Shown here piece by piece: positions 6,535 through 60,907 of a stretch of 62,137 bases of DNA. The DNA comes from Rickettsia typhi. GTDB taxonomy: Bacteria; Pseudomonadota; Alphaproteobacteria; Rickettsiales; UBA1997. The position numbers and the translations under genes are program-made. The notes under the pieces were generated by a model. It made no database searches and was not told the origin of the DNA. It was given only the letters and a program-made list of their open reading frames with translations. Where the stretch lies: NCBI GenBank assembly GCA_945900795.1, contig CAMDJN010000001.1, forward strand, positions 1 to 62,137. The letters are read 5' to 3'. Numbering within the stretch: the stretch's first letter is position 1; the number at the start of each line of letters is the position of its first letter.

Positions 6535-6677
6535 TAAACGTAGAGCCTGTATCGTGAGAAGGAATCTTTACTAAACGCAGGAAAGAGCTCAACAAAATGT
6601 TGGATGAGATCAATAAGTTGGCGCAGAAATGGCGCAACTCTAAAGCATCCTAAACGATGAAACTAAAATCTCCTAAA

Positions 6678-6819
6678 GGGAATCTCTAAAAATTAGATTT
6701 TTTTTTAGAAATTTTTAGGCAACAAATTTTCGAGCAGGTAAGCGTACTTAGAGGTACGTGCTCGCGAGAAAATTTGGTAACAACAAAATTTACAAAAAAA
6801 ACAATTTTTAGAGGTTCCC
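6678..6819. mobile_element. Palindromic MITE-like element, family A, copy A1 (subfamily 1)
   Basis: Near-identical to 58508-58659. Ends are gggaatctctaaaaatt ... aatttttagaggttccc, with the core gcgagcaggtaagcgtacttagaggtacgtgctcgcgag. Confidence 0.8.
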
Positions 6820-6841
6820 TAAAGTTCTTTTTCCATTTTTT

Positions 6842-7155: not shown

Positions 7156-7380
7156 ATGGCAAAATTTACGATCAGAAAATTACAAGAAAGAGGCTTCTTT
7201 AAGAATGGCTGGCTTAAGTCTTGCCACACATTTTCTTTTGCCGATTATTATGATCCGAAGCTCGTGAGTTTTCAATCGTTGCGGGTGATTAATGAGGATT
7301 TTATTGAGCCAAAAAAAGGGTTTGATTTTCATCCTCACAATAACAGGGAGATCATCACTGCTCGAAAATTTGTTGCCTAA
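7156..7380 (+). pseudogene. Pirin (YhhW-like) N-terminal fragment truncated by a half MITE
   Basis: ERGFFKNGWLKSCHTFSFADYYDPKLVSFQSLRVINEDFIEPKKGFDFHPHNNREIIT aligns with E. coli YhhW residues up to HPHKDMEILT. The reading frame then continues into MITE sequence (ARKFVA*). Confidence 0.8.
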
Positions 7381-7416
7381 AAATTTCTCAAAAAAATCTA
7401 ATTTTTAGAGCCTCCC
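7358..7416. mobile_element. Half copy of the family A MITE (left arm, inverted) abutting the pirin fragment
   Basis: ctgctcgaaaatttgttgcctaaaaatttctcaaaaaaatctaatttttagagcctccc is the reverse complement of the left arm of A1/A2. Confidence 0.7.
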
Positions 7417-7470
7417 TTGTTTCGAAAACCTTCTTCTGACTTCACAACTTTCCGATTTTAAGCCTTATTC

Positions 7471-17019: not shown

Positions 17020-17197
17020 TTCTTTAGGTTATTTTTTGCTATTCTGGGACTGTCGCAAATCTGCTTCTGCAAAAAAATTCACACTTTTTAGTGTAATTGC
17101 CGTTACTTGTGATACTGCCACTTGCCAAAAGTTGATCAGTGTACAGGGCCGCTTTCTTTAAAATTTGCTGGTTGATTAAATGGTATTAGCATTGTGC

Positions 17198-18923: not shown

Positions 18924-19364
18924 TGTAAGACAAGCGGATGATCGCTGATTTTGACTTGCGTAAGTGAGCCTGAAAATTAGAGGAAAGTCCGGACTCCGCG
19001 AGAAAATGATTCCAGCTAACGGCTGGCCAGCAACTTGAATTCATAGAGTTGGTCTGAGGGAAAGTGTCACAGAGAACATACTGCCAACTGGTTTGAATTT
19101 ATTTTCAAGCAAAGGGCGAGAGTGAAAATGTGGGGTAAGAGCCTACACGCTTTCATGGTAACATGGATTTGGAAAAACCCAATCAGGAGCAAGACCAAAT
19201 AGGAGTAGCAGGTTTTGATTTATTTCAAAACAGACGTTCTCGCGTCGTTACTCGGGTAGGTTGCTAGAGGTTAACAGTGATGTTAATCCCAGATGAATGA
19301 TCGTCGGTTGTTGTGGGTGCAAACCTGCGGCAACTACAAAATCCGGCTTATAGCTTGTCTTACA
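18924..19364 (+). ncRNA. rnpB: RNase P RNA (bacterial type A)
   Basis: The P1 stem pairs tgtaagacaagc (18924) with gcttgtcttaca (19353-19364). The P4 halves gaggaaagtccggactc and acaaaatccggcttat are present, along with ggtaagagcc and gggtaggttgc motifs. A short hairpin plus T-run follows at about 19378-19400. Confidence 0.9.
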
Positions 19365-19493
19365 GCTGAGGGTGAGGCAACGAGGGTTGCTCGTTTTCAA
19401 ATACAATCTGGAAAGGGGCAATAATTTTCAAGTGATGATAGTTCTGTAAGGATTTGGATTTAATTTTTCTTCACCTTAATGTAAGGAAGTGGT

Positions 19494-25703: not shown

Positions 25704-25917
25704 CGGAACCCCTGAAAAACCGTCTTTTTCGGTAACTTTGTCGTTCAGACCAATTTGCTCGCGAGCACGTACCTCTAAGTACGCTTACCTGCTCGCAAAC
25801 TGATCTTCCTAGAGATTCGCTTCGCTCATGCTCGTTCTCATCTAACGACGCAGGCGTCGTTTCGGCTAAAGCCGTTGATTCGAACTCCTCGAAAAATCTA
25901 GGTTTTTCAGAGGTTTC
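25704..25917. mobile_element. Family A MITE, copy A5 (subfamily 2, inverted, with an extra internal module)
   Basis: It has the same ends and core as 51440-51582 and 60757-60907 in reverse orientation. It also has an extra module of about 75 nt: gagattcgcttcgctcatgctcgttctcatctaacgacgcaggcgtcgtttcggctaaagccgttgattcgaac. Confidence 0.8.
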
Positions 25918-28800: not shown

Positions 28801-28853
28801 TTGGTATTGGATGGATAATATTTCAAGAAAAAAATTATGAGGGGGAGTTTATC

Positions 28854-28997
28854 TATACCCAACCAACCTCAAGAAGCTGATTGGGTATAGTTTTTATTTT
28901 GTACGCGACACGAAGTCGCCCCCCCCAAGAATTCTTGGCTTACGGGGTCCCTATATACCAAGCAGAGTTCGGTATCTTCAATCGTGTTTGGTATATA
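28854..28997. repeat. Composite hairpin repeat, family B, copy B1
   Basis: It is the reverse complement of 51601-51730. The modules are tatacccaaccaac..gttgggtata, a gcgacacga..tcgc segment with a C8 run, and tataccaa.cagagttcggtatcttcaatcgtgtttggtata. Confidence 0.75.
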
Positions 28998-31903: not shown

Positions 31904-31938
31904 GGGCACCTCTAAAAATTCTAATTTTTAGAGGTGCC
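31904..31938. terminator. Perfect palindrome made only of family A terminal inverted repeats, just downstream of queF
   Basis: gggcacctctaaaaatt c taatttttagaggtgcc lies about 20 nt after the queF stop, between queF and the lpdA start. Confidence 0.5.
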
Positions 31939-38429: not shown

Positions 38430-38473
38430 GTGATTCTCGCTAATTTTTAGAGGTTCCCTCCAATCGTTATGGT

Positions 38474-41064: not shown

Positions 41065-41107
41065 TTAAGATTCTAAACAGGTTGTGAGCAGCTCAAACTA
41101 GAGGTTC

Positions 41108-41425
41108 CTAGAATTTAAATCCTGGCGGAAGTGGAATGCCAGCGGTTGCTGATTTTATCGAGTCAGCAGAGCTGTCATCTGATTTCTTTTTAGCATCGTT
41201 GAAAGCTGCGATTAGCAGATCTTCGAGTATTTCTTTTTCATCCGCATTTCCAACCAAAGAAGGATCGAGGAATATTTTTTTGACCAATCCCGCTCCGGTG
41301 ATTGTAATTGTAACCATGCCTCCACCAGAAGAGCCTTCATATTCACTATTCGCCAAGTCATCTTGGATTTTTTGCATTTTCTTTTGAACTTCTTGCGCTT
41401 GGCGCATCAGTAATTTCATGTCCAT
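41108..41425 (-). CDS. ybaB: Nucleoid-associated protein YbaB/EbfC
   Basis: 105 aa. It has MRQAQEVQKKMQKIQDDL, GSSGGGMVTITITG and a C-terminal GIPLPPGFKF. Confidence 0.9.
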   Translation of the reverse strand: MDMKLLMRQAQEVQKKMQKIQDDLANSEYEGSSGGGMVTITITGAGLVKKIFLDPSLVGNADEKEILEDLLIAAFNDAKKKSDDSSADSIKSATAGIPLPPGFKF

Positions 41426-45117: not shown

Positions 45118-45159
45118 TGTATGGTAAAATAAAATTGAAGGTTGTTAGAGGTTCTTACT

Positions 45160-47019: not shown

Positions 47020-47204
47020 TTAAGGAGCCCTCTGAAAAACCATCTTTTTCGGTCATTTTGTCGTCAGACCAATTTGCTCGCAAACTGATCTTCCTAGAGA
47101 TTCACTTCGCTCATGCTCGTTCTCATCTAACGACGCATGCGTCGTTTCGGCTAAAGCCGTCGATTCGAACTTCTCAAAAAATACAGGTTTTTCAGAGGTT
47201 CCTT
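47020..47204. mobile_element. Family A MITE, copy A6 (has the extra module, lacks the central hairpin)
   Basis: It has the same ends and extra module as A5. The segment gagcacgtacc...cctgctcgc is missing between two tgctcgc direct repeats. Confidence 0.8.
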
Positions 47205-51439: not shown

Positions 51440-51582
51440 GGAACCTCTAAAAAGCCTGGATTTTTCGAGGCATTTTTAGGAAGATCAGTTTGCGAGCAGG
51501 TAAGCGTACTTAGAGGTACGTGCTCGCGAGCAAATTGGTCTGACGACAAAATTACCGGAAAAGATGGTTGTTCAGAGGCTCC
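51440..51582. mobile_element. Family A MITE, copy A3 (subfamily 2)
   Basis: ggaacctctaaaaagcctggatttttcgagg...gcgagcaggtaagcgtacttagaggtacgtgctcgcgag...ttcagaggctcc is near-identical to 60757-60907. Confidence 0.8.
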
Positions 51583-51600: not shown

Positions 51601-51730
51601 TATATACCAAACACGATTGAAGATACCGAACTCTGTTTGGTATATGGGGACCCCGCAAGGCGGGGCGCGAATCGTGTCGCGTAAAAATAAAAAATATACC
51701 CGATCAACTTCTTGAAGTTGGTTGGGTATA
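51601..51730. repeat. Composite hairpin repeat, family B, copy B2
   Basis: tataccaaacacgattgaagataccgaactctgtttggtata, ggggaccccgcaaggcggggcgcgaatcgtgtcgcg and tatacccgatcaacttcttgaagttggttgggtata make up the copy. It is the inverted counterpart of B1. Confidence 0.75.
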
Positions 51731-51756
51731 GTAACCTTTTTTCCAGATTAAACTTT

Positions 51757-58507: not shown

Positions 58508-58659
58508 CCTAAGGGAACCTCTAAAAATTAGATTTTTTTTTAGAAATTTTTAGGCAACAAATTTTCGAGCAGGTAAGCGTACTTAGAGGTATGTGCTCGC
58601 GAGAAAATTTGGTAACGACAAAATTTACAAAAAAAGCAATTTTTAGAGGTTCCCTTAGG
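58508..58659. mobile_element. Family A MITE, copy A2 (subfamily 1, best preserved)
   Basis: It has perfect 22-nt terminal inverted repeats, cctaagggaacctctaaaaatt ... aatttttagaggttcccttagg, and the whole element is an imperfect long palindrome. Confidence 0.85.
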
Positions 58660-58707: not shown

Positions 58708-58793
58708 GCGGTCGTGGCGGAACGGTATACGCGCAACGTTGAGGTCGTTGTGGGGTAAAACCCGTGGAAGTTCAAATCTTCTCGACCGCACCA
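58708..58793 (+). tRNA. tRNA-Leu (anticodon GAG), class II with a long variable arm; CCA is encoded
   Basis: Hand-folded. The acceptor stem is gcggtcg/cgaccgc. The anticodon stem is caacg/cgttg with loop ttGAGgt. The variable arm is ggggtaaaaccc, and the T arm is ggaag-ttcaaat-cttct. Confidence 0.9.
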
Positions 58794-60756: not shown

Positions 60757-60907
60757 TTAAGGAACCTCTGAAAAACCTGGATTTTTCGAGGCATTTTTAG
60801 GAAGATCAGTTTGCGAGCAGGTAAGCGTACTTAGAGGTACGTGCTCGCGAGCAAATTGGTCTGACGACAAAATTACCGAAAAAAATGGTTTTTCAGAGGT
60901 TCCTTAA
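60757..60907. mobile_element. Family A MITE, copy A4 (subfamily 2, best preserved)
   Basis: It has perfect 21-nt terminal inverted repeats: ttaaggaacctctgaaaaacc ... ggtttttcagaggttccttaa. Confidence 0.85.

Follow-up and report, generated by a model that had tools for sequence, protein, structure and literature searches.

Palindromic elements in the window

The window analysed here is a stretch of 62,137 nt that forms contig C1 of genome G000. Pfam searches identify gdh, pntAA, rsmI, dnaB, dnaG and a periplasmic-binding lipoprotein gene resembling LppC/LpoA among its genes; the names gdh, pntAA, rsmI and lpoA, used in a preliminary description of this DNA, are thus broadly right. The window also contains a bacterial RNase P RNA gene (class A; 18926–19366), and a tRNA gene at 58708–58790. 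Between the protein-coding genes lie copies of a short palindromic repeat, designated family A, and all six of the full copies listed in the preliminary description were recovered from the sequence.

The copy that gave rise to this work occupies 58513–58654 (plus strand, 142 bp), 40 nt past the gdh stop codon and 54 nt upstream of the tRNA gene. It belongs to subfamily A1 and carries, at 58567–58600 on the plus strand, the core hairpin GAGCAGGTAAGCGTACTTAGAGGTATGTGCTCGC. Its earlier placement was correct while its limits were not: the interval 58508–58659 takes in an additional 5 nt on each side (CCTAA/TTAGG), which are inverted relative to one another. Accordingly, the immediate flanks (CTAA at 58509–58512, TTAG at 58655–58658) are inverted rather than directly duplicated, and could reflect decay, or else a recombination or inversion event involving two copies. 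A second A1 copy, at 6678–6819 (plus strand), is 96% alike according to the repeat finder, and is bordered by a TAAA duplication (6674–6677 and 6820–6823).

The same repeat finder places two further full copies in a second subfamily, A2, in agreement with the proposal of two subfamilies with different arms. The first of these (51440–51582, plus strand) sits where the LppC/LpoA-like and rsmI genes diverge, with flanks AAAT/AAAA. The second is a 143-bp element 70 nt past the pntAA stop codon, on the plus strand; the copy itself is real, and the interval first given for it (60757–60907) includes both of its TTAA duplications (60757–60760 and 60904–60907), such that the element proper is 60761–60903. 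The remaining two full copies are long variants with an extra module, both in the opposite orientation to the other full copies (repeat finder): a 213-bp A2 variant at 25705–25917 (minus strand), with an extra module of ~75 nt and a core at 25761–25794 on the minus strand, and a variant at 47024–47202 (minus strand; flanks TTAA/TTCA) that, as had been noted for the interval 47020–47204, is without the core.

Partial copies are also present. These include (i) half an A1 element, from the left arm to the start of the core (7358–7418, minus strand), (ii) a 34-bp mini-element at 31905–31938 in which two terminal repeats are joined into a hairpin with a perfect 15-bp stem, and to which no strand is assigned, and (iii) a solo terminal repeat, TAATTTTTAGAGGTTCC, at 38441–38457 (minus strand). 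Two other proposed fragments, at 41098–41112 and 45146–45158, are weak, with matches of only 11–13 nt. Other repeats share the window: composite hairpins of a separate family, B, lie at 28853–28997 and 51601–51731, and a repeat with K-like ends (GGGACTGTCGCAAATCC; see below), a different interior and no core occurs at 17046 and on contigs C29, C34, C49 and C64 of the same genome.

Census of family A in the genome

The G000 assembly, a metagenome-assembled genome of Rickettsiales-like type from freshwater, comprises 1.47 Mb in 95 contigs, with 39% G+C. Used as blastn queries, the six full copies detect 120 loci. A search for the end pattern GGAACCTCT[AG]AAAA, allowing at most two mismatches, returns 281 end-like motifs, which resolve into 88 inward-facing pairs and ~100 solo ends; the genome-wide scan gives ~190 loci. 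Pair sizes fall mainly at 130–150 bp (~51 pairs), 210–230 bp (5 pairs) and 33–80 bp (~30 pairs, the minis). Full elements number ~56 and span 139–227 bp, a typical one being an imperfect palindrome of 139–143 bp with terminal inverted repeats of 16–22 nt (GGGAACCTCTAAAAAT in A1, GGAACCTCTGAAAAAC in A2). Over the entire size range of 33–227 bp there is no transposase gene, and such open frames as exist are read-through only.

Chance is excluded as a source of family A by three lines of evidence. Firstly, the 14-nt end motif has 109 exact matches in G000, while its reversed control has none in 44 genomes. Secondly, the 34-nt core has 49 matches in G000 with at most five mismatches, and is commonly variable at one loop position only. 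Thirdly, family A elements have folding z-scores of −8 to −11. Identity among elements is 92.8% within A1 (n = 28) and 94.9% within A2 (n = 14).

The word "modular", applied to the family from the window alone, is apt: chimeras of A1 and A2 arms, minis, long variants and nested composites are all present. In the nested composites, one and the same point of the family A core is occupied by a third palindromic element, which has TAGCATATCAGCATGAAAT ends and TA-like flanks (C42:3691–4014; also C10:24675, C44:12439 and C70:147). Site-specific targeting of the core by this element was considered and rejected; the identical junctions look like those of one composite subfamily, which probably spread after it had formed.

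Target-site duplications and filled sites

The preliminary description could not separate the taa/tta next to the ends from a target-site duplication. With the element edges defined as GGGAACC...GGTTCCC (A1) and GGAACC...GGTTCC (A2), a perfect 4-bp direct repeat is found at the edges of 50 of the 88 pairs. By chance 0.7% of pairs would have one (~1 of 88), and at offsets of 2–4 nt the count is 0 or 1. The words that are duplicated are rich in A and T, with TTAA (9), TTTA (8) and TAAA (6) in front and a T-T-A-A consensus, and many are non-palindromic (TGAA, TGAT, CGAT, TCAT, TGTA), which settles the earlier doubt; minis bear 4-bp duplications like those of the full elements. A perfect duplication is missing from 43% of paired copies, including 58513–58654.

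An occupied site and its unoccupied counterpart can be compared within one genome. The A1 copy at C21:1313–1451 of G000 splits a family B hairpin, with TGAA duplicated: intact family B hairpins, one of which lies in the window at 51684–51731, read CAACTTCTTGAAGTTGG, and the filled site reads ...TTGAA, followed by the element and then TGAAGTTGG. A further case comes from a metagenome contig (L193), on which a 273-bp A1-like MITE (miniature inverted-repeat transposable element) lies inside the transposase gene of the IS5-family element described below, with TAGT duplicated. Removing this MITE in silico restores GDPLVSLN, as in the intact transposase. No DNA-level match to the empty site was found in L126 or L130 within three mismatches; the argument from L193 is one of restored protein frame.

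Copies within genes

All copies in the window are intergenic, as first described. This does not hold genome-wide: three G000 copies are embedded in long open reading frames, in frame, in the genes for leucyl-tRNA synthetase (LeuRS), RecR and a CcoG-like protein. The accompanying statement that no copy has coding capacity must also be given up, since A2 elements and minis are open in one frame; with the duplication included, an A2 element amounts to 147 nt and a 35-bp mini to 39 nt.

The LeuRS insert (C4:47836–47978) contributes 49 aa, which map to the interval from residue 693 to residue 724 of the chain in solved LeuRS structures. It is absent from all 40 of the 40 congeners with a match, in which the flanking sequences are only 20–60 nt apart. 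The RecR insert adds 13 aa, and lies within a 43-aa segment that is extra relative to solved RecR; the insert in the CcoG-like protein is likewise 13 aa long.

A probable partner insertion sequence in related genomes

An autonomous insertion sequence (IS) with matching inverted repeats, suggested early on as something to look for, exists in relatives and in freshwater metagenomes, and is absent from the G000 assembly. The terminal 16 nt of family A are the inverted repeats of a 1,446-bp IS5-family element known from congeners and a metagenome contig. Only the terminal 16–18 nt are common to the two; the interiors are unrelated.

The complete element is found on the metagenome contig L126, with ends GGGCGCCTCTAAAAATCC and GGCAACCTCTAAAAATGC and an intact open reading frame of 369 aa. 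Its flanks, TAAA/TTAA, are alike at three of four positions, short of a perfect 4-bp duplication; this is the only complete copy, other copies being cut by contig ends. The left end, GGGCGCCTCTAAAAATCC, is also found in genome G003, and in G058, G007, G057, G011 and G014 the IS end (...VKIGMMNLTYNMVRLGQLL) lies ~190 nt past the stop codon of an IS5-type transposase. In G015, five contigs start with one and the same sequence of 139–190 nt ending in ...AAATTTGGATTTTTAGAGGTTCCC, followed by unique DNA; these contig-end sequences carry ends identical to those of family A (GGGAACCTCTAAAAATCC...), and the pattern reads as the signature of a multicopy IS that breaks the assembly. The assignment of the transposase to DUF772 and DDE_Tnp_1 comes from a Pfam scan of a homologue in G111 (another genus of the family; 357 aa, full-length, 53% identical; PF01609, 2.4e-25; PF05598, 5e-21). 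A decayed copy of the IS, without the first catalytic region, lies on contig C86 of G003 (L064), where an IS630-like element interrupts it close to the 3' end.

In the 98%-complete G000 assembly, tblastn finds no match to the partner transposase. Short remnants of the IS end are present. PF01609 has four matches in G000: two clear transposases (C32 and C15), and two weak, sub-threshold fragments on C31 that contain stop codons. The C32 and C15 transposases were rejected as partners of family A, their inverted repeats being unrelated. As the transposase gene is absent from the assembly, the family is either orphaned or mobilised by an unbinned IS copy. Orphan MITE families are known; an autonomous partner in the same genome is common without being required. 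The distribution in G015 is the reverse of that in G000: at least five IS copies (by the contig-end signature) and almost no family A MITEs, versus ~190 MITE loci and no IS.

We conclude, with a probability of about 0.88, that family A consists of non-autonomous DNA transposons (MITEs) that have the ends of an IS5-family IS and would have been mobilised in trans. The role of the IS5-family transposase is inferred from the identical termini and the matching type of target. The many loci found genome-wide and the lack of shared positions in a sister species (see below) support the earlier label "MITE-like, recently mobilised"; judged by its sequences, family A appears to have spread recently and to be, in itself, an ordinary family among MITEs.

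A mechanism may be proposed along the following lines. Transposase supplied in trans would excise a family A element and paste it into an A/T-rich TWWA site, duplicating 4 bp. Copies would then recombine, generating chimeras of A1 and A2 arms with a shared core; internal deletion would produce the 34-bp minis and solo ends; and further diversification would come from the capture of extra modules and from nested insertion. Most copies lie between genes, and because A2 elements and minis, with their duplications, are open in one frame, a few of those in genes survive as extra peptide loops.

The core hairpin outside family A

The 24-nt core consists of a CG[C/U]/GCG helix, an AA bulge, a GCGUAC/GUACGU helix and a loop of 5–7 nt. 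The core pattern, G-N-AAGCGTAC-loop-GTACGTGC, hardly varies among elements that have four or more types of end, and in congeners a core of 23–25 nt sits in elements whose ends differ from those of family A. Among these are the K type (ends GGCACTGTCGCAAATCAA; core present; a 5-bp duplication that is perfect in 21 of 23 copies), a type with TAGGACTTACGCAAAA ends (G050, and once in G000), and a G+C-rich type (G005). In an alignment of ten elements with unrelated arms and ends, the core is the sole contiguous invariant block. Separately, in G262 the core is carried by elements with family A-like ends (GGGAACCTCTATAAACCC).

Of 44 congeners, 17 contain the pattern G[T/A]AAGCGTAC-N5-7-GTACGTG. At the level of the order, G-N-AAGCGTAC-N5-7-GTACGTGC occurs in 40 of 401 genomes from 23 genera, with no match in most families; beyond it, five of ~298 sampled genomes of other orders contain the pattern (G605, G730, G634, G502 and G769), all of them of 1.6–2.0 Mb. 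Reversed-pattern controls of these searches gave 0 or 1. The core is far older and wider than family A. Its G000 form is another matter: the exact 34-nt core has no match in 185,579 species representatives and a looser pattern has six, so few as to mark this form as lineage-specific. Neither the core nor the A1 end was found in viral contigs, giving no sign of a phage vehicle.

In other families of the order the core is part of a conserved block of ~60 nt (...GAGMAYCGNAGC-GYAAGCGTAC-loop-GTACGTGC-GNAGCGGAAGCGCAGAAA...) inside a longer hairpin. The block is kept across at least nine families (L206–L225), and its helices covary: of the 36 pairs predicted by RNAalifold, 22 show compensatory changes, and neither the AA bulge nor the innermost 6-bp helix varies in that alignment. 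The helix adjoining the core varies (GAAA/TTTC, GGAA/TTCC, GGGA/TCCC, AAAA/TTTT, CAAA/TTTG), and rare double changes in the core helix itself keep the pairing (CATAC/GTATG, TGTAC/GTACA, CCTAC/GTAGG).

Searches for an identity of the hairpin gave little. Against Rfam 15, at gathering and permissive thresholds, only sub-threshold hits to plant miRNA-precursor hairpins were obtained, and a literature search for the letters of the core motif returned nothing relevant. In the copies that follow gdh and pntAA, a scan detected no consensus for a promoter, a terminator or IHF, so that a terminator role is not supported. Inspection by eye gave no support for a resemblance to domain V of group II introns, for a tRNA-like derivation of the extra module or for an IHF site.

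Strand behaviour

Computed with RNA parameters, the core-sense strand has a more stable fold than the opposite strand in 38 of 39 copies from G000 (mean −10.7 kcal/mol), 27 of 27 copies in G017 (−14.2) and 18 of 20 copies from other families of the order (−7.8). With DNA parameters the strand difference has the same direction and is smaller.

In G017, the K-type MITEs (L226–L265; ends GAGACTGTCGCAAATC, 5-bp duplication) have their sense strand on the strand of negative GC skew in 24 of 27 cases (binomial p = 5e-5). All seven of the contigs concerned agree (C1, C2, C4, C6, C8, C10 and C11; up to 243 kb), and the orientation is independent of the direction of nearby genes (14 of 27). In most bacteria the leading strand is the G-rich one; if this applies to G017, the better-folding strand would avoid the lagging-strand template. 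In a survey of IS orientation, IS91, IS110 and IS200 were the only ones to show strong replication bias in Proteobacteria (PMC3971601), which makes the G017 pattern an unusual one among elements that have inverted repeats and duplications of fixed length. The bias may reflect either the manner of insertion or the survival of one orientation. In G000, core orientation shows no bias with respect to GC skew (14 of 35 agree) or to neighbouring genes (11 same, 12 anti); within the window, four of five cores are on the G-rich strand.

These observations raise the possibility that the central bulged hairpin acts as single-stranded RNA or DNA and is the main reason that the elements are kept, transposition being only the vehicle. 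Candidate roles would include recognition by a protein in replication or repair, a part in transposition itself, and RNA processing, each compatible with the MITE reading, to which it would add a function. The invariance of the core among unrelated arms and ends, its reach across congeners, the order and five genomes outside it, the compensatory changes in the flanking helices, the better folding of the sense strand in all three sets of copies, and the G017 strand alignment irrespective of gene direction all speak for such a role. Against it stand the patchy spread of the core (~10% of genomes), which indicates that the host does not need it, the even orientation of G000 cores relative to genes and replication strand, and the failure to match any Rfam family or any promoter or terminator consensus. 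Moreover, within a subfamily, conservation of the core does not exceed that of the arms (minor-allele fraction 0.025–0.029 in the core versus 0.031–0.041 in the arms). On balance we consider it rather unlikely that the hairpin is what keeps the elements. The specific proposal, that the 24-nt core is a functional single-stranded module, strand-specifically recognised, that rides MITEs with at least four end types in small-genome alphaproteobacteria, is offered as tentative and in our estimation doubtful.

Alternative transposases and the age of the family

The MITE reading could hold with a different enzyme. A transposase of, for example, the IS630/Tc1 type might mobilise family A, its TA duplications hidden within TTAA, in which case the ends shared with the IS5-family element would be coincidental or secondarily captured. 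It is true that the stretch in common is just 16–18 nt, that an IS630-like element exists in the genus, that G000 has another MITE family with TA-like flanks, and that TTAA is the commonest family A flank. Nevertheless, many of the 4-bp duplications have no central TA (TGAA, CGAT, TCAT, TGAT, TTCA), and a model with a 2-bp duplication fits the element edges worse. The identity to the IS is 16 of 16 at the exact termini, the IS has equally A/T-rich flanks, and a related MITE sits inside that very IS (L193). We regard a different transposase as improbable.

Among 44 congeners, family A occurs in numbers in one other genome only, G058 (114 end motifs), the sole sister species to share the family. 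The genes of G058 and G000 are ~72% identical at the nucleotide level, and there is little synteny between the two. Their MITEs are, by eye, far more alike than their genes, and both arm types are present in both species. On both arm types, the core takes a form particular to each genome (GGTAAG/TTAGAG in G000, GGAAAG/CTTGAT in G058); together with the arm chimeras, this indicates that copies recombine with each other. Conservation at orthologous positions, named at the outset as the mark of an ancient structural motif, was not seen beyond chance: a G000 end is present within 400 nt of 9 of 37 G058 loci, roughly as often as chance would give, and the closest case consists of two independent insertions ~50 nt apart, with different duplications. 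The recency of the burst in G000 is inferred from these unshared sites, from the identity among copies of a subfamily and from the leuS insertion that congeners lack.

That family A is an old, vertically inherited and immobile motif (REP/BIME-like, or a regulatory palindrome) might be argued from the ancient and widespread core and from the missing transposase in G000, and is very hard to credit given the fixed-length target-site duplications, the empty and filled sites, the lineage-specific leuS insertion, the non-orthologous G058 positions, and the 93–95% identity among copies versus ~72% for G058 and G000 genes.

Comparison with known palindromic repeats

Family A matches the IS5 subgroup in its 4-bp, A/T-rich target duplication. 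The label "type II" is used for MITEs that have nothing but the terminal repeats in common with a parent IS. Such a class is described in PMC10969869. The ends of family A are the ends of an IS with DUF772 and DDE_Tnp_1. Like IS-derived MITEs, family A is small, high-copy and able to fold into a long hairpin, and decays to partial copies and solo ends. Unlike that class of MITEs, it shares its hairpin module with MITEs that have other ends and a 5-bp duplication, and its parent IS is missing from G000.

The Rickettsia palindromic elements (RPEs), for which in-frame insertion into genes has been described (Ogata et al., as cited in PMC10969869), offer a second comparison. Family A resembles RPEs in being a ~150-bp palindrome of a Rickettsiales-like genome that is found in frame in housekeeping genes and tolerated as an extra peptide. 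The proportions differ, with three of ~88 paired family A copies in genes and the rest mostly intergenic. Set against RPEs, family A has clear inverted repeats, duplications and an identifiable IS partner; the likeness described here is one of behaviour.

The QMITE2 elements of Coxiella burnetii (150–190 bp; PMC5896051) likewise combine terminal and direct repeats with a central core of their own, and their full-length copies coexist with truncated ones that resemble bare hairpins. They differ from family A in having direct repeats of 7–11 nt (4 bp in family A) and a core that is a GTAG REP serving as IS1111 target (PMC5896051); the family A core is different in sequence, and conserved across orders. 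An origin from REP/RAYT or IS200/IS605 elements, which a Y1 (HUH) enzyme mobilises as single strands and which have neither terminal inverted repeats nor a target duplication, does not fit: family A has inverted repeats and 4-bp duplications, and the K type 5-bp duplications. Correia elements make TA duplications. Those of Neisseria are, like family A, palindromic MITEs of ~100–150 bp with many copies and internal-deletion subtypes, and possible effects on neighbouring transcripts are a Correia-like trait (PMC10969869). Correia elements carry promoters and an IHF site, neither of which was detected in the family A copies scanned.

Implications

Family A is a palindromic repeat of a Rickettsiales-like genome that lies in essential genes and comes with inverted repeats, duplications and an IS5-family partner; RPE-like insertion thereby becomes testable against a named transposase. 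The MITE-rich, IS-less G000 and the IS-rich, MITE-poor G015 form a natural pair for asking how non-autonomous elements outlive their parent. A hairpin of 24–60 nt stays near-invariant while arms, ends and duplication length change around it, and, together with the strand bias, points to an undescribed interplay between palindromic transposons and the single-stranded DNA or RNA machinery of the host. If the doubtful single-strand proposal were true, recognition of the core, in replication-exposed single-stranded DNA or in RNA, would explain both the persistence of the elements and their strand alignment in at least one species.
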